A stretch of 17,396 nt of DNA from Arcobacteraceae bacterium (GCA_965224485.1 CBDCZH010000002.1:1-17396), one strand, 5' to 3'; numbered from the stretch's first letter, positions 1 through 15,502 are shown. Program-made: numbers and translations. Notes: generated by a model from the letters alone, not told the origin.

Positions 1-265
1 CAAAGTTTGAACTTTGTCTTGGATTAACAATATAAGAAAGTATGTTTTTTTGAGCACAGAAATGTTTTAGTAAAGAAGAATAAGGACCTGTTGGCTCGTA
101 AATAAATACCAAATTCTTATACTCTTTTTTGTAATATTTTTTGAGTTTAAAATACAAAGAGTTGATAGACTTTTTAGTATTTAAAATACTAATATTCTCA
201 TTTTTAATTTCAATATAAACTTGTAATGTTGACTTAGATACATCAATTCCGATAAACTTATACAT
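1..265 (-). CDS. IS110-family DEDD recombinase/transposase, 5' part (runs off the window start), copy 1
   Basis: ATG at 265 after AGGAGG. Translates MYKFIGIDVSKSTLQVYIEIK...VFIYEPTGPYSSLLKHFCAQKNILSYIVNPRQSSNF with no frameshift. GIDVSK and EPTG are the first two DEDD motifs. Not in the ORF track. Confidence 0.92.
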   Translation of the reverse strand, partial: MYKFIGIDVSKSTLQVYIEIKNENISILNTKKSINSLYFKLKKYYKKEYKNLVFIYEPTGPYSSLLKHFCAQKNILSYIVNPRQSSNF

Positions 266-345
266 GAAGGCCTCCTAATTAATTTTAGAAGAGCTTGTTA
301 GGACAGAGCTTATGCTCTGTCTGATTTTAGAAACTAAATATAACT
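1..345 (-). mobile_element. IS110 copy 1, left end truncated
   Basis: Matches 5026-5246 + 6783-6907 apart from one A. Identity stops at 345, before the bridge-RNA loops seen in copy 2. Confidence 0.88.
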
Positions 346-387
346 GGAACGGTAACTGAATTTCATACACTTTTCTACTTATCCCTA

Positions 388-418
388 AGGATTTCATACC
401 CCTGGGGTAGGAAATCCT
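388..418. repeat. REP-like palindrome, copy 1 (intact IS110 target)
   Basis: AGGATTTCATACCCC-T-GGGGTAGGAAATCCT: 15-bp arms with one mismatch. Same core as 7426-7464 and 7921-7959. Confidence 0.9.
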
Positions 419-567
419 GTACTAATGTACACTCCGCTTTTCAATTCAAGCTCCGCCTTGATTTAACACTAAATCTCAAAATTTCTAAGCGATTAAATAA
501 TTATTAAATTAAAGTCTAATATCCTCTTTATTTCTTTAAAAGTAATAAATTAATATATTTATTTAAG

Positions 568-785
568 GGACATAATGTCTATTTTTTCAGATATTAAGTA
601 ATTAGTGGACATATATGTCCAAATAACCTTGAAATAGGTAGTAAAATTACATTATTTATTTAAGTTAAATATTTGTATAATGCAATAATAAATTCAAATG
701 ATGATATATCCACATTTATTATATTGATAAATTGACATTATTTTGTCTATTAATAATTAATATATAGGTAAAGTGGACAATAATG
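568..785. promoter_or_regulatory. Cluster of GGACA/TGTC(C) motifs and candidate cassette promoter (Pc)
   Basis: GGACATAATGTCT 568-580, perfect TGGACATATATGTCCA 606-621, GACATTATTTTGTC 734-747, AGTGGACAAT 772-781. TATAAT at 676-681 faces the cassettes. Confidence 0.45.
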
Positions 786-787
786 GG

Positions 788-806
788 AATGAATAAATAG
801 TTAGTC
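788..806 (+). other. Putative attI-like recombination site / start of cassette 1
   Basis: GTTAGTC(T) at 800-807 is the exact reverse complement of (A)GACTAAC, which opens the next attC. AAT-N5-GTT spacing fits a simple site. No attC-like hairpin upstream. Confidence 0.6.
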
Positions 807-840
807 TCCAAATATAAACTGATAAAAAAGGAAATAATTA

Positions 841-2268
841 ATGAATGAAGTAATTGTGCAAGAATCAAACATAATCAATATAAATCAGAATTTAGCTAAT
901 CATGAAATCACTTTAGTTGAAGTAATCGATAACTTAGGTTTACCATCAAAAAATGTATTAGTTCCCGTATCAGAAAGAATTCGAGTATTTAAAAACATTG
1001 AAGATGTTGTAATTCAAATTAAACCTGAAATTAGAAAAGACTCATATTATATTTCAAAATTTATTGCAGCAGTATCATCCGGTTTATTCGATGCCGCTTT
1101 AAATTATTTATGGGATGAAACTATTGAAAGCTTAAGAATAAAAGTCTCAAATTATGATATTGACTATTTTTATGACCAAGTCATTACAAATGAAGATAGA
1201 AGAAGGAAATTAACATCTGCTGATGATTTAGTAAACATTATGGATCAAGAATTGATTGAAGGTGCAAGAAAAATCAGTTTAATTTCAGATATTGGATATG
1301 CCCAATTAGATCTAATTAGATTTATGAGGAATCATGCAAGTGCAGCTCATCCAAACCAAAATGAATTAAGAGCAACTCAATTAATTGATTGGATGGAAAC
1401 AGCAATTAAAGAAGTTATTTTGCTTGAAGAACCTCATGTCGCAATTCATATTAAAAGACTTATGTTAAATATAAAAGAAAATAGGATTGAATCAGAACAA
1501 AAAGCTAAAGAAATGGTTTCTTTTATTAAAGATGCACATCAAGAGCAATTGAATAATTTATCAAAAGGTTTTTTTGGTTTATATACGAGAAGTGGAACTT
1601 CCCAAATTGCTTTAGATAATATCAAGTTATTATTACCATTTATTTGGGAGTTAATAACTGATGATATTAAATATTCTTTTGGAATAAAATATAAAAACCA
1701 TGTGATTGAGAATCATATTGAAGGACAGAAAAAATCTAAAGAATTTTTACAAATTTGTGATGGATTAGGCTATTTACCAGAAGATACAATTATATTGGAA
1801 ATTGATGAAACACTTAATAATCTTAAAAGAGCTCATGATACATCAAATAATTTCTATAATGAGCCATCTCATACAAGAATATTAGAAAAATTAGTAATAT
1901 CATCTATTCCAAAAGGGATAGAAAAGAAATATGTTCTAACTCTCCTTTATGTAGCAATTACCAATGGTAATGGAGTTACTTGGGAAGCGGAACCAACTTA
2001 TTTTAAATTAATACAAAATTTTTCAGCAGAACAAGTTTCAATTGCTTTATTATCATTTCGAACTACAGAGATCAATACGAAATTGGTTTATACTCTTTGT
2101 AAAGAAAAGTACTTGGAAATTTTACACTTATTAGAGCCTAAAATTGTTTTAGAACAAGAAAAGGAACTTTTAAAACAAATATTAGAATTTACAGGCTCAT
2201 TTAATAATTTAAAAATTGACACTAAAATAAAGAAACTAGGTGATGGATTAGTAAAATTATTAAAGTAA
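841..2268 (+). CDS. Cassette 1: 475-aa uncharacterised protein with HEPN-like RNxxxxxH motif
   Basis: Long ORF with AAGGA RBS, filling the cassette. Motif MRNHASAAHP in the N-terminal third. The ORF is well supported; the function is inferred. Confidence 0.8.
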   Translation: MNEVIVQESNIININQNLANHEITLVEVIDNLGLPSKNVLVPVSERIRVFKNIEDVVIQIKPEIRKDSYYISKFIAAVSSGLFDAALNYLWDETIESLRIKVSNYDIDYFYDQVITNEDRRRKLTSADDLVNIMDQELIEGARKISLISDIGYAQLDLIRFMRNHASAAHPNQNELRATQLIDWMETAIKEVILLEEPHVAIHIKRLMLNIKENRIESEQKAKEMVSFIKDAHQEQLNNLSKGFFGLYTRSGTSQIALDNIKLLLPFIWELITDDIKYSFGIKYKNHVIENHIEGQKKSKEFLQICDGLGYLPEDTIILEIDETLNNLKRAHDTSNNFYNEPSHTRILEKLVISSIPKGIEKKYVLTLLYVAITNGNGVTWEAEPTYFKLIQNFSAEQVSIALLSFRTTEINTKLVYTLCKEKYLEILHLLEPKIVLEQEKELLKQILEFTGSFNNLKIDTKIKKLGDGLVKLLK

Positions 2269-2279
2269 TTAACTTAAAA

Positions 2280-2408
2280 GACTAACAATTAATTGGAAAG
2301 AACGAGGTAGTAGTAGAAAAACTTTTGGGTTTAATTGTTCGCAAGAGATGAAAACAATTTACTTGAGTTAACCGTTACTTACCTCGTTCCTCAATACCGA
2401 CGTTGTAT
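2280..2408 (+). other. attC site 1 (129 bp)
   Basis: R'' GACTAAC, 5-nt spacer, ATTGGAAAGAACGAGGTA ... TACCTCGTTCCTCAAT (10-bp perfect stem plus unpaired bases), 6-nt spacer, R' GTTGTAT. Begins 11 nt after the stop codon. Confidence 0.88.
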
Positions 2409-2507
2409 CTAAGTTTTAATGAAAATGACAAATCAGTCTCATCTATAGAATTTATATATGCCTATTTTCAAAATTGGAGATTGGTAAATTTAATTCTAGG
2501 ATATATA

Positions 2508-2651
2508 ATGCAAGAATGGTATGATTCAACAAACAAAAAACAAAAGTTACTCATGTGGGGTATTTCAAGTATATTAATTTTAGTATATGCCACAGGACTC
2601 CTACCTTTATCAATACTTACTTATTTAGAATTTGGTTCAAGTAAAAAGTAG
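2508..2651 (+). CDS. Cassette 2: 47-aa small membrane protein
   Basis: AGGA RBS before ATG 2508, preferred over the TTG at 2403, which lies inside attC R'. Hydrophobic segment LLMWGISSILILVYATGLLPLSILTYL. Confidence 0.6.
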   Translation: MQEWYDSTNKKQKLLMWGISSILILVYATGLLPLSILTYLEFGSSKK

Positions 2652-2656
2652 TTTTA

Positions 2657-2815
2657 ATGGCTGATAAAATAGAATTTATTTTTTGGGCAACATTAATACT
2701 ATATATTATAACACTTTTTACAGTACCTTATGTTGGTGTTTATCTAACTTATGTAGCTATCCCTGTTATCGTAATAACAGGATTAATATGTAAATTTACA
2801 GTATGGAAGGATTAA
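2657..2815 (+). CDS. Cassette 2: 52-aa small membrane protein (below ORF-track cutoff)
   Basis: Manual translation MADKIEFIFWATLILYIITLFTVPYVGVYLTYVAIPVIVITGLICKFTVWKD. Starts 5 nt after the previous stop. Two hydrophobic stretches. Confidence 0.6.
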   Translation: MADKIEFIFWATLILYIITLFTVPYVGVYLTYVAIPVIVITGLICKFTVWKD

Positions 2816-2850
2816 AAATTAAGTTGAATTCACTTAATTTTTGATACAAT
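2814..2850 (+). promoter_or_regulatory. TA operon promoter with overlapping inverted-repeat operator
   Basis: AAAAATTAAGT-N7-ACTTAATTTTT (2814-2842) overlaps TTGAAT and abuts an extended -10 TGATACAAT (2842-2850), upstream of the antitoxin. Confidence 0.6.
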
Positions 2851-2879
2851 AATATATAAATAAATTATAGGAGTTCATT

Positions 2880-3137
2880 ATGCAAACAATGGCAGTACAA
2901 ATTCAAGATGACTATGTTCAAAAATTTATGAGTTATGTTAATAGTCATAGTGAAAACATTACTATAGCAAAAGATAAAAATTTAGAACTTGACCCATACT
3001 TTTATGAAAGACAAAAAGAACTGCAACAAGATATTGAAGATATTGATAATGGTAAAGCTGAAATGTTATCATCAGAACAATTTGATACAGAAATGGATAT
3101 TTTTTTTAAAGACTTAAAATCAAATGCACATATCTAA
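2880..3137 (+). CDS. Type II antitoxin (partner of RelE/ParE toxin)
   Basis: 85 aa, acidic, AGGAG RBS, overlaps the toxin start by 14 nt. Confidence 0.75.
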   Translation: MQTMAVQIQDDYVQKFMSYVNSHSENITIAKDKNLELDPYFYERQKELQQDIEDIDNGKAEMLSSEQFDTEMDIFFKDLKSNAHI

Positions 3138-3408
3138 ATTAAGAAGATATAAAAATCAATTAACAATAATTCTAAAACATATTGCAAAAGATAAAATTTC
3201 AGCAAGTGAAAATTTTTATTTTAATCTCAATAAAGCAATAGAAGAAATACCAAATTTTCCCTTTAAATATAGAAAATCAATCTATTTTGATAATGAGGAT
3301 ATAAGAGATATGACCTTTAAAGGCTATACCGTAACTTATAGAATAAATATCAAAAAAGATTTAATTGAAGTAATTAGAATATTTAATAAAAATAAACCGA
3401 CAAGGTAA
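3124..3408 (+). CDS. RelE/ParE-family type II toxin
   Basis: 94 aa, basic. Pattern I...IAKD....A..F...L...I..I..FP...R, IRDMTFKGYTVTYRI, IEVIRIF is typical of the RelE/ParE fold. Confidence 0.88.
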   Translation: MHISKLRRYKNQLTIILKHIAKDKISASENFYFNLNKAIEEIPNFPFKYRKSIYFDNEDIRDMTFKGYTVTYRINIKKDLIEVIRIFNKNKPTR

Positions 3409-3413
3409 GGCAG

Positions 3414-3546
3414 ATACAACAAATCAGAGGAAGAGAACAAGATTACCTTGCGAAAATATCGGGTTTTTATTATATAAAGTCAGATACTTAAAAAATAAAA
3501 TATTTCTTGCCTAAATCCATCTTGTCCCTCACTTCGAGCGTTCTAT
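3414..3546 (+). other. attC site 2 (133 bp)
   Basis: AGATACAAC (3412-3420) is the exact reverse complement of the cassette start GTTGTATCT (2402-2410). 5-nt spacer, ACAAGAT/ATCTTGT stem, 6-nt spacer, R' GTTCTAT 3540-3546. Confidence 0.85.
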
Positions 3547-3700
3547 CTATAGTTTTAAAGATAAATGATAAAGTGAGCATTGTTTTAGTGTAATCTTTCA
3601 AAACTTTTTAAAAAAGTTTAATCAAAATTCAAAAAACTATAATACATCCATTTATAATAGCCAATAAAAATTTGGTAAATTTAAAATTAGGATAAATTTA

Positions 3701-4063
3701 ATGACAGTTACAGTTACAACAAAACAAGAATTAAAAGAAGCACAAGAGTCACATATTGAAAATATAATAGTAATGGGAGAATTAGCAGATAAAATAAAAA
3801 AAGCTCAAAAGATTACAAAACTTGGTAAAGTTGGATTAGCTGTACTAACAACAGCGATAGGTATTGGTGTTGTTACTGCTCCAATGACTGGTGGATTGTC
3901 ATTATTAGCAGCAGCACCAGTTGCTGCTACTACAGGTTTAGGTACTGCTGCAATTATTTCAGCATCTGCTGTAGGTATTGCTTTAATTTTAGCAGTATAT
4001 AAAGGATATGATGAGATTAGTTATGAAAATGGCAAAATTACATTCAGAAGGAAATCAAAATAA
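3701..4063 (+). CDS. Cassette 3: 120-aa Gly/Ala-rich membrane protein of unknown function
   Basis: AGGA RBS. Long hydrophobic Gly/Ala-rich centre with charged termini. TATAAT boxes at 3638-3643 and 3653-3658 and a palindrome at 3601-3619 lie upstream. Confidence 0.8.
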   Translation: MTVTVTTKQELKEAQESHIENIIVMGELADKIKKAQKITKLGKVGLAVLTTAIGIGVVTAPMTGGLSLLAAAPVAATTGLGTAAIISASAVGIALILAVYKGYDEISYENGKITFRRKSK

Positions 4064-4081
4064 TGATAGCACCACAACCAT

Positions 4082-4374
4082 TTAAAAATTACACCCCAGT
4101 TGCCACGTTAAAAACAACTTAAATTAAGCAATATTTTACATATTATCTTCCTTCCATGATACTCTTTTTTCGTAAAGAGTATTGTCGAAGTTTTTATTAT
4201 TTTTAAATAGTGAATGGGCTATTAAAAATTACAAATTACAACCCAGTTGCCACGTTAAAAACAACTTAAATTATGCAATATTTTTCATATTATCTTCCTT
4301 CCATCCTACTCTTTTTTCGTAAAGAGTATTGTCGAAGTTTTTATTATTTTTAAATAGTGAATGGGCGATTAAAA
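4082..4374. repeat. Imperfect tandem duplication (~145-bp unit) of the IS110 right end and transposase 3' end
   Basis: CCCAGTTGCCACGTTAAAAACAACTTAAATTA...GTGAATGGGC occurs at ~4095-4219 and ~4242-4366 with a few substitutions. Confidence 0.9.
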
Positions 4375-5246
4375 TCATTTTCTTCATAACGGCTATTTGT
4401 GCTACTGTTGAATGTTTTCCATTTTCTTTTAAACGATCATAAAAAGCTTTCATATATGGATTACTTCTTATGGCACAAAGTACTGGCATAAAGAATATGC
4501 TTCTATATATCGCATTTCCTTTTTTCGATATTCTTGACTTTCTATTTATTGAACTACCTGATGTTTGTTCAATTGCATCTAATCCTATTAATGCAGTTAT
4601 CTCTTGTCTATTTGCATCTTTATAGGTAATAAAAAGATGTATCAAAGCTATTGATGATAAATCTCCAATACCTTTAATTGATTTCATATTTTCAAATTTA
4701 CACAATAAAATGTCATCTGTTTTTATTAAGTCTTTCATTTGAAGAATCATCTCTTTTTCTTCTTCTTTTAAGTGTTTTACTGTTTTATTAAGTTTTTTAA
4801 TTATTAAGGCATTTCCCTCTTTTACTTCTAAGGATTCTAAATGGTTTGAGAATCCAGTTCGTTGTTTTTGTAGAAGTTTATAATAGCTTAACATCTCACC
4901 TAAACTCTCTTGTCTTTCGTCAATTACAGGGACTTTGATATCTTCACTATTTGCCATAACTCTAAAGTTATATAACATCTTTGCATCTATAATATCACTC
5001 TTACTTCTATTATCTAATGCTTTTGCAAAGTTTGAACTTTGTCTTGGATTAACAATATAAGAAAAGTATGTTTTTTTGAGCACAGAAATGTTTTAGTAAA
5101 GAAGAATAAGGACCTGTTGGCTCGTAAATAAATACCAAATTCTTATACTCTTTTTTGTAATATTTTTTGAGTTTAAAATACAAAGAGTTGATAGACTTTT
5201 TAGTATTTAAAATACTAATATTCTCATTTTTAATTTCAATATAAAC

Positions 5247-6773
5247 CAGCAATTCTAACTCTAAATTTAACCCACCATTCCTTTAATCCAAATACGGAGC
5301 CATCTCTATATTTTCATCTGTTTGTCTGGATATTAGTATAAATTCTAATAATTTATTAAAGCTTTTAAATCTAAACATTGTAGTTAACATATGCATCCCT
5401 ACGAAGAACTCTTCTCTTGTACCTATTTCTTCTCTTACTTCTATATAAAGATCATCAGTTAATTCTTGTACTGTATGAAATAAAAAGGCTAATATATTTA
5501 AAGAGCATAAAGTTTTAGATAAATTCTCTTTTCCATGCCCGAAGTTATGGTCTAAATGATAACCTTTAGTTTTTAAAGTATTATTATTTTCATTTTCTAT
5601 TTTCCATCTTGTTTTACCTGCTAAGGTAATATCTTCAACATTATTTAAATTAATTTTAATATCACTTACAAAGCTATTACGATAGAGTTTTCTTCCACTT
5701 GCATTAGTAATAATAATCTCACACCAGTTTACTTCTTCTGGAGGGTTATTTGTATCACCATTTGGATTTTTAATAGCTAATTTATTTATATAATTATAAA
5801 TAAAAGTTTGTTTTTTACCATTAATCATTTTATCTATTTGCTTACTATCACAAGTACCTAATTCTTTAATCATATCTATTTGTTCATAAAGATATTTATG
5901 AGATGTTTTTTTAGCTACAAATATATATGAATGATTTTTTTCTAATACTTTTTTTATCATAGGTTCTCTTGAATATAAGTCATCACCTAGAATAATTACT
6001 TTATCTGAACTTGGAGCTTTAAATGTATCTAACCATCTTTTAGAAGCATTTACTTCACAATCTTGTTTATCATTTCCATCTTCATTTGATATAAATTCTT
6101 GCATTAAAGGTAATACTTTTTTTATATTAGGATTAACGATTGTAGGTGTTATTACACTATGGAAATAATGAACTTCATGTGTTTCACTATTTGTTTTACT
6201 TTGGCAACATTTACAAGATATATTTTTACTTGAATGGTAATGTGTACCATCTAATGCTACTAGTAAATATTTATCCATAAAAGTAAATTTCTTTTTTAAT
6301 AAACCTATTTTATCTAAGTGAGATATTACAGTATTGTAAACATTTTTAAATACCTCTGGTTTTATTTTATCCATTATATTTCGTATATGATTATCTGATG
6401 GTATATCTGTAATACCAAATATAGTTTTAGCATTACTGCTTCCTTTATTAGTATCCATTTTTCTCTGAAAACTTAACCAAGATTTATTCTGAAAATAAAA
6501 AATACTAAATGTTGATAAGATAATATCTTTAAAAGAATATTTAATATCTTCTCTTTGTCTTCTAGTATCATTAATATTATCTATATTTGAAGTAAAACTA
6601 TCTATTAAAAAATTAAAAATATTTGTTTGTCTATAACTCATATCAACCCCTTGTTTATAGGGTTATTATAGCTAATTTATGGTTTTAGAATGGTTAAAAA
6701 TAGGACTTTTTAAGGTGTTTTTAGGATTTCTTTTTATGAAATTTATTTTTATATTTCAGAGTTAGAATTGCTG
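5247..6773 (-). mobile_element. Nested DDE insertion sequence (ISNCY/IS4-like), 1527 bp
   Basis: Perfect 16-bp TIRs CAGCAATTCTAACTCT (5247-5262 / 6758-6773). 9-bp TSD AATATAAAC (5238-5246 / 6774-6782). The empty site is visible in copy 1 at 212-220. Confidence 0.96.
5283..6641 (-). CDS. DDE transposase (ISNCY-type), 452 aa
   Basis: ALDGT, GDDLYS and RWKIENE give the DDE triad. CKCC and KQDCE motifs present. Fills the TIR-bounded element. Family label is recalled, not searched. Confidence 0.9.
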   Translation of the reverse strand: MSYRQTNIFNFLIDSFTSNIDNINDTRRQREDIKYSFKDIILSTFSIFYFQNKSWLSFQRKMDTNKGSSNAKTIFGITDIPSDNHIRNIMDKIKPEVFKNVYNTVISHLDKIGLLKKKFTFMDKYLLVALDGTHYHSSKNISCKCCQSKTNSETHEVHYFHSVITPTIVNPNIKKVLPLMQEFISNEDGNDKQDCEVNASKRWLDTFKAPSSDKVIILGDDLYSREPMIKKVLEKNHSYIFVAKKTSHKYLYEQIDMIKELGTCDSKQIDKMINGKKQTFIYNYINKLAIKNPNGDTNNPPEEVNWCEIIITNASGRKLYRNSFVSDIKINLNNVEDITLAGKTRWKIENENNNTLKTKGYHLDHNFGHGKENLSKTLCSLNILAFLFHTVQELTDDLYIEVREEIGTREEFFVGMHMLTTMFRFKSFNKLLEFILISRQTDENIEMAPYLD

Positions 6774-6863
6774 AATATAAACTTGTAATGTTGACTTAGA
6801 TACATCAATTCCGATAAACTTATACATGAAGGCCTCCTAATTAATTTTAGAAGAGCTTGTTAG

Positions 6864-6883
6864 GACAGAGCTTATGCTCTGTC
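6864..6883. terminator. Hairpin between bridge RNA and recombinase RBS (possible 3' boundary)
   Basis: GACAGAGC-TTAT-GCTCTGTC perfect 8-bp stem, also at 302-321. No clear U-tract, so the role is uncertain. Confidence 0.4.
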
Positions 6884-6899
6884 TGATTTTAGAAACTAA

Positions 6900-7074
6900 A
6901 TATAACTTCACCTCGCAAAATGCAATCTGGAAATATATCCGACTTAGTTGCCACTCAAGTTTTTAATTTAGCTATTAAACTGGGGTACAGACTCATTCAA
7001 TAATTATTAAATGGTCTCAGGGGTACATCAATATACTAAAATTGACTCTTCTTTTTATTATAGCTTATTGCTAT
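6900..7074 (-). ncRNA. IS110 bridge RNA (predicted)
   Basis: Downstream of -10 TATAAT (7085-7080): a 5' hairpin (7060-7074), then a target loop with UACCCCU (7025-7019) and UACCCCAG (6987-6980) around an inner stem, then a donor loop with GUGGCAACU (6954-6946) identical to the right end plus core. Ends approximate. Confidence 0.85.
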
Positions 7075-7087
7075 ATTCCATTATACA

Positions 7088-7106
7088 AGGGGTAGGAAAT
7101 CCACTT
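7088..7106. repeat. Half REP-like palindrome at the IS110 left junction
   Basis: AGGGGTAGGAAATCCACTT is one arm of the repeat at 7426-7464, cut at the palindrome centre. Confidence 0.9.
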
Positions 7107-7167
7107 ATCTGATTTACACTTCTAAGAATGAATCTCCACTAGTTAAGAAAAACGTGGAGCGTAAGTC

Positions 7168-7367
7168 CTGCCTTTGTTGAAACAGAGTGTTTGTTTTCTT
7201 CTTTCGGAACAGACCGAATCTGTTTGAACGTTAAAAAATGTGCTCTTTAGCACATTTTAGAGAGTTATGCAGGGTAGAAAGAAGAAAACAATAAGCGAAG
7301 GTAGCTTTGCTTTCAACAATACGGCAGTTGCTTTCTTTTTTCTTCTTTTCAAGAAAAGAAGAAAAAA
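7168..7367. other. Highly structured non-coding element with nested inverted repeats
   Basis: CTGCC/GGCAG, TTGTTGAAA/TTTCAACAA, TTGTTTTCTTCTTTC/GAAAGAAGAAAACAA (15 bp), AACAGA/TCTGTT, AAAATGTGCT/AGCACATTTT, then a 15-bp-arm hairpin at 7336-7367. Confidence 0.75.
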
Positions 7368-7425
7368 AACGAATGCGCCAGCTTTCATGAGCTCTAGAAC
7401 AAAAATAAATACAGCCATATTTTTG

Positions 7426-7464
7426 AAAGTGGACTTCCTACCCCTGGGGTAGGAAATCCACTTT
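7426..7464. repeat. REP-like palindrome, copy 2
   Basis: AAAGTGGACTTCCTACCCC-T-GGGGTAGGAAATCCACTTT, 19-bp arms with one mismatch. Flanks (~7383-7500) are similar to ~7876-7995. Confidence 0.92.
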
Positions 7465-7527
7465 ATTTTACGATGAAAGATTTCTCAGTTTAGTTTATTT
7501 ACTAACAAGAATTAATATTTATATTTC

Positions 7528-7556
7528 TTGACTTTATATTTCTTTATTGTTATGAT
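7528..7556 (+). promoter_or_regulatory. Sigma70-type promoter with no downstream ORF
   Basis: TTGACT-17 nt-TATGAT with a TGn extension. Confidence 0.5.
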
Positions 7557-7920
7557 TATGAATCAAATAACATAAAAAGTTAGTTTAACAAAGTTAATTT
7601 TCGTTAATTTTATTGAGCTTACTTTTTTTAGTAAGTCAAGAAAACCAGTGGATTGAACGACTTGTATCGTTTATGGGATGTAAACTTTCAATAACCATGT
7701 CCTCGTAACAGTTTTTGGTCTGTTACAATATTATTCCCTAAAAAATGTTTTAAATGATAATATTTTGTTTTTTATTAATCTTATAGATACCATTCTTACT
7801 ACATTATTTTGATATTTCTTTTTTAAAACCAAAGACACATCATTTTGTCTTGTTTGTTGATTTCTTGTAATACTTTTTCACGAGCTTTAACTCAAAAAAT
7901 AAATAGCATCTTAATTTTTA

Positions 7921-7959
7921 AAAGTGGATTTTCTACCCCTGGGGCAGTAAATCCACTTT
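7921..7959. repeat. REP-like palindrome, copy 3 (degenerate)
   Basis: AAAGTGGATTTTCTACCCC-T-GGGGCAGTAAATCCACTTT, followed by the shared TACGATGAAAGATT. Confidence 0.9.
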
Positions 7960-8066
7960 CTTCTACGATGAAAGATTACTTAGTTAAGTTTATAAAATAT
8001 TATATTATTGTAGAGAAGATAGACTTTTCGTTTTTATGAATTAAGAAGGAACAAAAAACTAGATAA

Positions 8067-8091
8067 TACAGCCAAAAATGTATTGGCTGTA
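8067..8091 (-). terminator. Probable intrinsic terminator of the DUF1772 gene
   Basis: TACAGCCAA-N7-TTGGCTGTA just past the stop at 8108. Confidence 0.6.
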
Positions 8092-8107
8092 ATTATATTT
8101 TGGTATT

Positions 8108-8551
8108 TTAGTTTACAACACTTGCATACAAAGCAATTATAAATGCAAGAGTAGAACAAGCAGATCTAATATGATGTTTTTTTGCCCAAGCAGCAATTAA
8201 ATTCTTTATTTCGTGCTCAGATGTATTTTCATCAGCTGCCATTAATTTTGTATTAATAGGGGCAATGAAAATAAGTGTTATTGGTGTTAATAAAAAAAGA
8301 AAAAATGCAGACGCGTACCATAAAGAATCATTTAAAATGTAGCCAGAAACAAGAGCTAGAATCATTGTGAATATTCCTAGGGGTTTAAACATGGTACCTG
8401 CAATTGGAAAAGCATAGTTCCAGTTTGCCAATTGTTCTTTTGCGCTCATTTTCTCCCTTGCTCCAATTTCAACATGAGATGCATACATCATTGCACCTGC
8501 AACCATACCAATTAATAATAATGATATAAATTCTATACTTACGTTTAACAT
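8108..8551 (-). CDS. DUF1772 / anthrone-oxygenase-like membrane protein
   Basis: Four hydrophobic helices, PINTKL and W.KKHHIR motifs, AAGGA RBS. Confidence 0.75.
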   Translation of the reverse strand: MLNVSIEFISLLLIGMVAGAMMYASHVEIGAREKMSAKEQLANWNYAFPIAGTMFKPLGIFTMILALVSGYILNDSLWYASAFFLFLLTPITLIFIAPINTKLMAADENTSEHEIKNLIAAWAKKHHIRSACSTLAFIIALYASVVN

Positions 8552-13802: not shown

Positions 13803-15502
13803 TTATTTTGTTTTTAATTCAGACTGTAAGCCTCTGTAAAGGCTATAGGTCATAATTAATAAAATAACAGTAAAAGGTAAGGCTGTAGCAATTGAACCTG
13901 CTTGTAGGGCACTTAGCGCATCTGCTCCACCTACATATAAGAGTGCAATAGCAACAAAACCTTCTGTTACTGCCCAAAATACTCTTTGGGTTACGGGAGC
14001 ATCTTGTTTTCCACCTGCAGTAATACTATCAATTACTAAAGATCCAGAATCAGAGGAAGTTACAAAAAATACAATTACTAAAAAGATTGCAATAAAAGAC
14101 GTAATACTTGCAAAAGGAAGGTTTTCTAACATTTGAAACATTGCTAAGGATTTATCAGTAATTCCATTGCTTAATGCACCTACTTTTCCAATTACTTGGT
14201 CAAGTGCTGTTAGTCCAAAAGTACTCATCCAAATAGCAGTTACAAAAGTAGGAATTAATAAAACGGCAATTAAAAATTCTCTTACTGTTCTTCCTTTTGA
14301 AACTCTTGCAATAAACATTCCTACAAAAGGAGACCAAGCAATCCACCATGCCCAGTAAAATACTGTCCAACCATGATACCATTCGCTATCTTCTCGTCCA
14401 ACAAAATTACTTAAAGCAAAAATATTTGAAGCATAACCACTAAGTGTTGAACCCACTCCTGTTATTATTAATAAAGTAGGCCCTACAAGAATAATAAATA
14501 CAAGTAATATTAAAGCAAGAATAATATTAAACTTACTTAATACTTTAACCCCACCTTCTAAACCACGTACCACTGAAACTACGGCTAAAGCAGTAATTGC
14601 TAAAATTATATAGATTTCAGTGTTGACTCCTTTTTCAATACCAAATAAAAAGTTAAGACCAGAAGAAACTTGTTGCGCTCCTAATCCTAAAGAAGTAGCA
14701 AGCCCAAAAATAGTTGCAAATACAGCAAGTATATCTATTATATGTCCTGGCCAACCCCAAATTCGCTCTTTTAGTAAGGGATAAAATACTGATCTCATCG
14801 TCAATGGAAGTTTTTTATTATAAGAAAAGAATGCCAAAGCTAATCCAACTACCGCATAAATAGCCCAAGGATGTAATCCCCAGTGAAACATAGTAGCAGC
14901 CATTGCTAATTCTTTAGCTTCAGGTGTATTAGGAAGTACATTTAAAGGCGTATGCCACCATGAAGTATAATAAGCTACTGGTTCAGCTACGGACCAATAC
15001 ATAAGCCCAATTCCCATACCAGCAGCAAAAAGCATAGAAAACCATGAAATCTTGAAAATTCAGGTTTTGCATCCTCTCCTCCAAGACGTATTTTACCAAC
15101 AGGCAAAACTATTAATGCTAAACAAAACACTAAGCCCAATTCCCATACCAGCAGCAAAAAGCATAGAAAACCATGAAAATCTTGAAAATTCAGGTTTTGC
15201 ATCCTCTCCTCCAAGACGTATTTTACCAACAGGCAAAACTATTAATGCTAAACAAAACACTACAAAAATGTTTCCAGATAACATAAATAACCAATCAAAA
15301 TTATTGATTGACCACCATTTGAGGAGCTCCGTCTAATATTTCTTTTGCTTCTTTAGGAGCAGCAATAGTACCTATTACAAATACTAAAATTAGCATAGCA
15401 CTTATAATAAACACTGGGTTGTGAAAATCAATTGATTTGACCAAATTTTTGTAAATTATCCTGGCCTGCAGTTCAACTGTATTTTATATTTTTATCATTC
15501 AT
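13803..15502 (-). pseudogene. BCCT-family (betaine/choline/carnitine) transporter, 5' part broken by duplication and indels
   Basis: MLFAAGMGIGLMYW, HWGLHPW, WTVFYWAWWIAWSPFVGMFIARVSKGRT and FFVTSSDS motifs. N-terminal pieces (GQDN, HNPVF, FDWLF, KIRLGG..AKPEFS) lie in different frames back to ATG 15502 with a GGAG RBS. May be an assembly artefact. Confidence 0.85.
15002..15260. repeat. Tandem duplication (129 + 130 bp) inside the BCCT gene
   Basis: 15002-15130 and 15131-15260 are identical except for one A (CATGAAAT vs CATGAAAAT). Confidence 0.95.

Follow-up and report, generated by a model that had tools for sequence, protein, structure and literature searches.

Insertion sequences (IS) of the IS110 family have long been known to integrate at a fixed position within repetitive extragenic palindromic (REP) sequences, where they leave a 2-bp repeat (PMC1525189), and since 2024 their insertion has been known to be guided by an RNA (PMC11208160). 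In the published model of this bridge RNA, left guides correspond in sense to the top strand and right guides are its complement, with the core dinucleotide included (PMC11208160). The REPs themselves classically occur in more than 100 copies per genome (PMC2817692). The locus considered here is a contig of 17,396 nt from an Arcobacteraceae bacterium (GCA_965224485.1, CBDCZH010000002.1:1-17396), the whole of which was analysed and is referred to as the window; it carries three short palindromes and an IS110-family element, here named IS-A, which interrupts a related repeat. The palindromes are probably variants of a REP-like family associated with genes for REP-associated tyrosine transposases (RAYT), used by the bridge-RNA-guided IS-A as its integration site. 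An arrangement of this kind is already known, and what is new here is the bacterial group, the near-palindromic target and the orphan state of the repeats.

The window constitutes contig C2 of a draft genome (G000) of 2.79 Mb in 24 contigs, with about 27% G+C and a completeness of 91.8%; other C-numbers denote further contigs of this genome, other G-numbers the genomes of relatives, and L-numbers loci. The repeats, the interrupting element and its junctions are arranged as follows.

388-418, no strand assigned: palindromic repeat copy 1, with 14-nt arms, consisting of two left arms (GGATTTCMTACCCC) head to head around a T
7426-7464, no strand assigned: palindromic repeat copy 2, with 19-nt arms, one mismatch and the core TACCCCTGGGGTA
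7921-7959, no strand assigned: palindromic repeat copy 3, with 19-nt arms, three mismatches and a diverged right arm
7089-7106, minus strand: left arm of the IS-interrupted repeat (the half copy), minus-strand reading AAGTGGATTTCCTACCCC
4082-4097, minus strand: right arm of the IS-interrupted repeat on the far side of the element, minus-strand reading GGGGTGTAATTTTTAA
7114-7140, minus strand: degenerate repeat of a second subtype (AGTGGAGATTCATTCT...GTGTAA), in tandem with the IS-interrupted repeat
4100-7087, minus strand: IS-A copy 2, IS110 family, with DEDD_Tnp_IS110 and Transposase_20
7088-7089, minus strand: core dinucleotide CT of the left-end junction, from the junction reading
4098-4099, minus strand: core dinucleotide CT of the right-end junction, from the junction reading

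The anatomy of the junctions can be read directly. On the minus strand they run ...CCTACCC-CT-TGTATAATGG...(IS)...CGTGGCAA-CT-GGGGTGTAATTT, with the two-base core CT at both ends of the element and no long inverted ends, and the joined flanks give the intact motif that is present at C10:138461-138497, C16:144295-144329, L001 and 16 other sites. An earlier note on this DNA had proposed an IS110 insertion into the repeat, and this is borne out by the duplicated CT and by guides that match the repeat core, so that an IS621-like, RNA-guided mechanism becomes visible. The half copy that it placed at the junction of the IS110-family element is likewise there, although it starts at 7089 and not at 7088. 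The transposase fragments of IS-A match PF01548 and PF02371 (a DEDD RuvC-like N-terminal domain and Transposase_20), while the NF033542 model scores 115.7 bits on a 270-aa fragment (cut-off 140) and 157.7 bits on the intact relative L023. Amino acid identities of 65% or more to IS-A are reached only by relatives in G141 (two), G193, G003 and G002, each of which is one of the seven genomes that bear the motif. Among the six elements whose flank is readable, five lie at a motif-type site (window copy 2, L058, L087, L059 and, for the right end only, L088), the different target being that of L060. Elsewhere in G000, IS-A has left a remnant of its right end on C10 and, directly beside a left arm, one of its left end on C19; one full insertion and two or three remnants are counted among about 13 sites of the family in this genome.

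The left end of the element encodes the RNA with which the target is read, and its parts are listed below.

6880-7087, minus strand: bridge-RNA gene in the IS-A left end, indicated by guide matches, covariation in relatives and a consensus fold
7019-7025, minus strand: left target guide TACCCCT, matching the left half of the target plus CT
6980-6987, minus strand: right target guide TACCCCAG, matching the right half of the target
6946-6954, minus strand: left donor guide GTGGCAACT, matching the element's own right end
6912-6917, minus strand: candidate right donor guide, at the aligned position, with two G-T wobbles

The matches are 7, 7-8 and 9 nt long, and under the published guide model the IS-A guides read the target TACCC-CT-GGGGTA together with the element's own right end. 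Since the target centre, ACCC-CT-GGGGT, is near-palindromic, the two target guides are almost one word, and the core TACCCCTGGGGTA of palindrome copy 2 is a full match to both. The exact word expected for the right donor guide is absent from the IS-A left end; positions 6912-6917 remain a candidate because they pair only by way of the two wobbles.

The agreement of guides with flanks is directly observed in relatives as well, where both change together. At L059 the guide ACCTCT stands beside the flank ...AACCTCT. A second IS110 type in G000, IS-B, with about 47% amino acid identity, has a like scaffold with other guide words that match its own flanks, and two IS-B variants in this genome carry the guides GAAAAACT and CTATAACT beside the flanks GAGAAACT and ATATAACT, their left guides differing exactly as their left flanks do. 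Across 30 elements in 22 non-redundant clusters, the self match of guides and flanks reached 279, compared with 195.8 +/- 8.0 after permutation, a value attained by none of 5000 permutations. The alignment of 20 left ends with RNAalifold gave two modules, each consisting of a stem, an internal loop and a stem, with the guides in the loops and with compensatory changes in 19 of the 28 pairs, a two-loop fold in agreement with the architecture of the IS621 bridge RNA (PMC11208160).

The target of IS-B has a repeat of its own. Its insertions (C19, C10, C12, C23 and C15) lie at ...CCTGARAAA-CT-CACTAAAA, adjoining a hairpin of a structured repeat of about 390 nt, which is the landing pad of IS-B; like flanks are found on many IS110 relatives in the bacterial family. 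This repeat has 65 nhmmer matches in G000, in many cases with a partial, inverted copy ahead of a complete one, and no match in Rfam. One member is found in the window, others being at C5:65405-65790 and C5:66042-66439.

7159-7395, plus strand: member of the structured repeat of about 390 nt, a family different from that of the palindromes

The three palindromes and the half copy described in the earlier note are all present at the positions listed, and the palindromes have the common centre CCCC-T-GGGG. A 29-nt palindrome pattern with up to three mismatches gave three matches in the window and none in any of 200 dinucleotide shuffles. As single-stranded DNA, copies 1, 2 and 3 form hairpins of -11.3, -15.7 and -11.7 kcal/mol (z -4.3, -7.1 and -4.8), energies unmatched by any shuffle. 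The diverged unit of about 120 bp that had been reported around copies 2 and 3 was also found (7383-7498 and 7876-7993, 82% over 118 bp), as were the similar downstream flanks of copy 1 (CTAATGTACACT, 422-433) and of the half copy (CTGATTTACACT, 7109-7120), the latter being the right arm of the adjoining degenerate minus-strand repeat of the family at 7114-7140. Upstream of copy 1, an unrelated 40-nt stretch (346-387) stands in place of the left end of IS-A copy 1, with a single look-alike of 92.5% at C17:7782-7821, and includes a near-repeat of the palindrome arm (GAATTTCATACAC against GGATTTCATACCC). Another imperfect palindrome repeat of about 80-90 nt (AATCAAGGCG...GCGGAGTGTAC...GTAC...CAACGCAGAG) is present in the window at 415-497, as well as at C7:66556-66640 and C19:179950-180230; in the window it consists of the left half alone, which ends at the start of palindrome copy 1.

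Beyond the window, the usual unit of the family is asymmetric and about 35 nt long, AAAAGTGGATTTCYTACCCC-T-GGGGTGTAATTT, in which a left arm (AAAAGTGGA with a variable centre that ends in ACCCC) and a right arm (GGGGTGTAATTT) are joined by a central T. A half-plus-core pattern was detected in 7 of 184 genomes of the bacterial family, among them four of the five of the genus, with one to seven matches each, both strands counted; the reversed pattern, used as a control, gave none in any genome. Outside G000 the asymmetric unit is present at all of these sites, some with one or two changes, the exception being L007, which is probably a chance match. It is therefore the canonical form, and the palindromes of the window are the exception. 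Of 61 genomes, only G000 and one congener matched the full palindrome pattern, and the match of the congener is not palindromic; perfect palindromes were seen in G000 alone, with three on this contig and a degenerate one on C5, so that palindromy does not hold as the family trait for which the earlier note took it. Nor is the family an abundant one, as had been supposed. The word CCCCWGGGG occurs six times in the 2.79 Mb of G000, three of these in the window, and family sites amount to about 13 in this genome and 5-44 in five relatives. Matches to the frame pattern numbered 44 in G029, 30 in G001, 28 in G002, 7 in G141 and 5 each in G021 and G000, with 0-1 in controls. An expected intergenic bias is seen, as 12 of the 13 G000 sites leave open reading frames (ORFs) of at least 100 aa untouched, while the remaining site shares 2 nt with a stop codon.

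When 185,579 species genomes were searched for an exact 18-mer, 17 loci were obtained, titled as Arcobacter and Sulfurimonas metagenome-assembled genomes, one contig of a 'Flavobacteriaceae' metagenome-assembled genome, two Clostridia and one probable chance match. In the two Clostridia, titled Clostridium aquiflavi (L032) and Oceanirhabdus seepicola (L039), an 18-22-nt core with the right arm (TACCCCTGGGGTGTAATTTT) forms inverted doublets without the AAAAGTGGA arm. A gene for a pyridoxal phosphate (PLP) protein stands ahead of the motif in G001 and G002; G000 lacks a close orthologue, its best match being 27.5% identical. No match to Rfam was detected over the whole window at E up to 1, and no tRNA was found in it by ARAGORN.

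The connection of this family with RAYT genes rests on loci in relatives. A Pfam scan of 88 ORFs around motif sites identified two as Y1_Tnp (PF01797), with 57.5 and 42.1 bits (cut-off 23).

L030:1953-2732: Y1_Tnp ORF of 260 aa, PF01797
L040:2888-3661: Y1_Tnp ORF of 258 aa, PF01797

For both proteins the sole and best NCBIfam match is REP_Tyr_transpos, the REP-associated tyrosine transposase (E 4e-20 and 2.5e-16). Each of the two genes is preceded by an inverted copy of the motif and has a forward copy running over its last codons, an arrangement that is directly observed. RAYT homologues were found in 62 of the 184 genomes, and flanking inverted repeats at 13 of 14 homologous loci, with scores of 14-30 compared with at most 13 for shuffles. 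In the closer homologues the frame AAAAGTGGA...GGGGTGTAA is retained while the centre varies with the lineage; more distant homologues have different inverted flanks. The link to a RAYT-like Y1/HUH gene anticipated by the earlier note is accordingly present: at L030 and L040 the gene stands between inverted copies, and at 11 additional loci between lineage-specific variants of them. Since the motif forms the terminal inverted repeats of the unit that contains the RAYT gene, it arguably comes halfway to being the terminal repeat of a known element, a finding which that note had held would speak against its proposal. An alignment of seven of the proteins shows no variation at H59, H61, Y118, N122 and P123 (HUH and Y---NP), and Y---NP is the context of class 2, or TnpArep (PMC6006769). 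In G029, 11 inverted motif pairs occur 172-175 nt apart, including RAYT C-terminal fragments, and these pairs are internally deleted, REPIN-like doublets. The contig of L040, whose RAYT is flanked by exactly this subtype, is 93% identical to C23 of G000 over 981 bp; a close relative therefore carries the cognate RAYT. The two sequences diverge before the RAYT unit, and its borders are for that reason unreadable from this comparison. The right-arm word (GGGGTGTAAT or its complement) is tandemly repeated in the vicinity of RAYT genes and also at certain solo sites (L046 in G001, L045 in G021, L012, L030 and L037), and upstream of the RAYT at L046 it is repeated about nine times, partially or fully. 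These tandem words suggest repeated cutting and rejoining at the core.

Taken together, these data point to the following course of events. In other genomes, two inverted units bracket a RAYT gene, the downstream unit overlapping its last codons, and the RAYT presumably moves or maintains the repeats, of which G000 retains orphan copies only. The three copies on this contig appear to have arisen as head-to-head fusions of two left arms, which would yield perfect hairpins, and the joint could be the product of the Y1 enzyme or of an inversion followed by an excision involving the IS. IS-A would integrate at the centre of the repeat, guided by the bridge RNA that its left end encodes. In the target loop, TACCCCU represents the sense of the left half of the site with the CT core and UACCCCAG is complementary to CTGGGGTA on the right half, while in the donor loop GUGGCAACU represents the element's own right end with CT; recombination at CT would then insert the element and leave CT on both sides. 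The state of the local copies of IS-A is documented by further features of the window.

5247-6773, minus strand: IS4-like element with DDE_Tnp_1 and 19-nt inverted ends, which splits the IS-A transposase gene
4082-4375, minus strand: 147-bp tandem duplication over the IS-A right-end junction (4082-4227 and 4229-4374, 95% identical)
1-345, minus strand: IS-A copy 1, cut by the contig start, with homology to copy 2 ending at 345 (equivalent to 6907)

Both copies are defective, copy 2 being split by the IS4-like element, which is bordered by a 9-bp target duplication (AATATAAAC, at 5238-5246 and 6774-6782), and copy 1 lacking all four bridge-RNA guides because its homology to copy 2 ends at 345. 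IS-A was presumably active here at an earlier time, and palindromes with a perfect guide match may be unoccupied because no functional IS-A is visible in the assembly. The IS4-like element has an ORF of 452 aa with weak matches to DDE_Tnp_1 and DDE_Tnp_1_assoc, and occurs as a single copy in the assembly.

A bolder proposal, which is rather unlikely, is that in the palindromes the inner ends of the RAYT unit have become joined (as left arm, core and inverted left arm), so that they mark the point at which the RAYT cleaves. Were the Y1 enzyme to cut inside CCCC-T-GGGG, the palindromes would resemble the joint of the right and left ends of a RAYT unit, and the bridge RNA would have evolved two near-identical target guides for the dinucleotide at which the Y1 enzyme acts. 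Two unrelated single-site recombination systems would then have converged on one 11-nt core, and the inverted core doublets in the Clostridium and Oceanirhabdus contigs would point to transfer of the unit between phyla.

Several observations weigh against the reading of the palindromes as RAYT-associated, REP-like landing pads. Searches of G000, at its 91.8% completeness, with Pfam, NCBIfam, the L040 protein and, in tblastn at E up to 10, four RAYTs detected no Y1 gene or remnant, so that a Y1/RAYT gene in this assembly, which the earlier note had considered, is not to be seen. In the two genomes with the RAYT of this subtype, the motif is limited to the RAYT locus, with 2 and 3 copies. As regards the protein, the REP_Tyr_transpos scores of 72.2 and 59.9 bits are below the 80-bit cut-off, the profile match to the E. 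coli TnpArep (4er8) is weak (E 0.027), and a search of solved structures with the single RAYT sequence gave no match. At the level of the repeat, a REP is by rule a stem-loop unit adjoining a conserved GTAG. Here GTAG is a feature of this subtype alone, where the complementary strand carries it as GGGGTAGG, the folds of the asymmetric units do not surpass those of shuffles (z -0.1 to -0.6), and the subtypes do not share the palindromic core; the defining stem-loop is therefore weak, and the term REP fits loosely. The copy numbers, about 13 in G000 and 5-44 in relatives, are also far below those of classical REPs. At the element, the right target guide fits the palindromic arm (8/8) better than the arm at the actual insertion (7/8), and unrelated sequence at 346-387 takes the place of the left end of IS-A copy 1.

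A possible, although less probable, account is that the Y1 gene with its 35-nt inverted ends is a selfish transposon of the IS200/IS605 type and that the scattered motifs are its solo ends and internally deleted miniature inverted-repeat transposable elements. The low copy number and patchy spread (7 of 184 genomes of the family, and contigs titled Sulfurimonas) agree with this, as do the several RAYT copies and pseudogenes of some genomes (four matches in G001 and 14 in G029) and the RAYT C-terminal coding sequence kept in the G029 doublets. The IS110 element would then target the terminal repeats of another transposon, as IS4321 and IS5075 reportedly do at Tn21-family ends. Nonetheless, the catalytic context Y---NP is that of class 2, the TnpArep class (PMC6006769), and the commonest form of the motif is the single asymmetric unit far from any Y1 gene. 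This account departs from the RAYT-associated, REP-like reading only on whether the unit is selfish or domesticated, the landing-pad mechanism being common to both. It is improbable that the palindromes are host regulatory elements, either bidirectional terminators or a protein operator, with only an incidental relation to RAYT and IS. Their strong hairpins, the extragenic position of the sites (12 of 13 clear of ORFs of at least 100 aa) and the L001 motif, situated 15 bp beyond a stop codon and ahead of a T run, would suit such a role. Nevertheless, none of the three terminator-like sites in 300-8200 coincides with a palindrome and no palindrome is followed by a T tract, on which grounds intrinsic terminators were rejected; furthermore, the asymmetric majority has no fold, and a motif centre that shifts with the flanked RAYT lineage would not be expected of a host operator.

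The surroundings of the repeats also bring integrons to mind, since an integron-integrase gene fragment is present on C19, the window to the left of the IS resembles a cassette array with a ParE toxin pair, and several motif sites elsewhere lie among cassette-type genes (Cass2 and toxin-antitoxin pairs). An attC site, present on a single side of every cassette, is an imperfect palindrome of 60-140 nt delimited by ...AAC and GTT... boxes. The motif has neither AAC/GTT boundary boxes nor the layout of a 60-140-nt imperfect palindrome, it stands inverted on both sides of Y1 genes, the integrase lacks its N-terminal part (the match covers model positions 87-313 of 315), and Rfam gave no match on the window. 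That the repeats are attC recombination sites is therefore extremely improbable, and for the palindromes this was rejected on account of the missing boxes, the bracketing on both sides and the truncated integrase. Hardly more credible is an origin of the palindromes as by-products of the IS, whether remnants of its ends or footprints of excision. Three of four palindromes do lie less than 1 kb from IS-A copies, and bridge recombinases have been described to invert and excise DNA as well (PMC11208160); yet the arm AAAGTGGATTTCCTACCCC is absent from IS-A, flanks RAYT genes, and is present in G001 and G109, genomes without IS-A relatives. The reading as variants of a RAYT-associated, REP-like family accounts best for the data.

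Additional aspects of the window and of the genome lie apart from the repeat family. Two imperfect palindromes at 2272-2418 and 3409-3556 are situated between small ORFs, both ending in CGTTSTATCTAWAGTTTTAA and the second starting with the complement AGATACAAC; between them lie a ParE-type toxin pair (2880-3408) and ORFs with no assigned function. They are possibly attC-like cassette boundaries, and their folds are no better than those of shuffles (z -1.1 and -0.8). The integron-integrase fragment at C19:179222-179905 (L091) matches TIGR02249 with 278 bits (cut-off 265) at model positions 87-313 only, and a structured repeat and an IS110 right-end remnant lie directly upstream of it. At 14995-15262, the 5' part of a BCCT transporter gene contains a 128-bp tandem duplication (97.9% identical), which separates the first 80 codons or so from the rest by a frameshift; this is either a real disruption or an assembly artefact.

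A literature search that combined RAYT with these taxa found no report for this bacterial family, and in PMC6006769 no mention of Arcobacter, Campylobacter or Epsilonproteobacteria was found. The present data add to this family a RAYT-linked repeat and a matching lineage of bridge-RNA IS110 elements. The approximately 30 related elements with readable guides and flanks constitute a compact natural example of target reprogramming. The locus also suggests that repeats can outlive their RAYT and yet still draw IS insertions into accessory regions.

When compared to described systems, the locus resembles ISPpu9, ISPpu10, ISPa11 and ISRm19 in the insertion of an IS110-family element at a fixed REP position, with a 2-bp direct repeat and recoverable halves (PMC1525189). 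The genomes of those elements hold hundreds of REPs, with every IS copy in one (PMC1525189), whereas here there are about 13 sites with only one full insertion and two or three remnants. As in the REPIN-RAYT system, or REPtron, a Y1/HUH gene with Y---NP is located between inverted copies of a dispersed extragenic repeat (PMC2817692, PMC3116915, PMC6006769), and in one relative, G029, inverted doublets are the amplified unit. Unlike in that system, the protein is longer, with about 258 aa and a C-terminal helix-turn-helix region, the downstream repeat lies inside the last codons of the RAYT gene, the repeat is asymmetric with a core stem of only 4-5 bp and copy numbers of 2-44, and several lineage-specific subtypes occur side by side in one genome. 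Integration into the ends of another unit reportedly has a parallel in IS4321 and IS5075, IS110-family elements that are said to enter the terminal inverted repeats of the Tn21 family as IS-A enters RAYT-unit ends; these are said to belong to the IS1111 group, with the guide RNA in the right end, whereas that of IS-A is in the left end. With IS621, IS-A has in common a DEDD recombinase with Transposase_20, a left-end RNA with target and donor loops, left guides in top-strand sense, complementary right guides, a CT core in each pairing, and a REP-type repeat as natural target (PMC11208160). The two differ in the sequences of recombinase and RNA, with no Rfam match for IS-A, and in their hosts, that of IS-A belonging to a low-GC family whose public relatives are titled Arcobacter; the IS-A target, ACCC-CT-GGGGT, is near-palindromic, and both of its target guides are almost one word.

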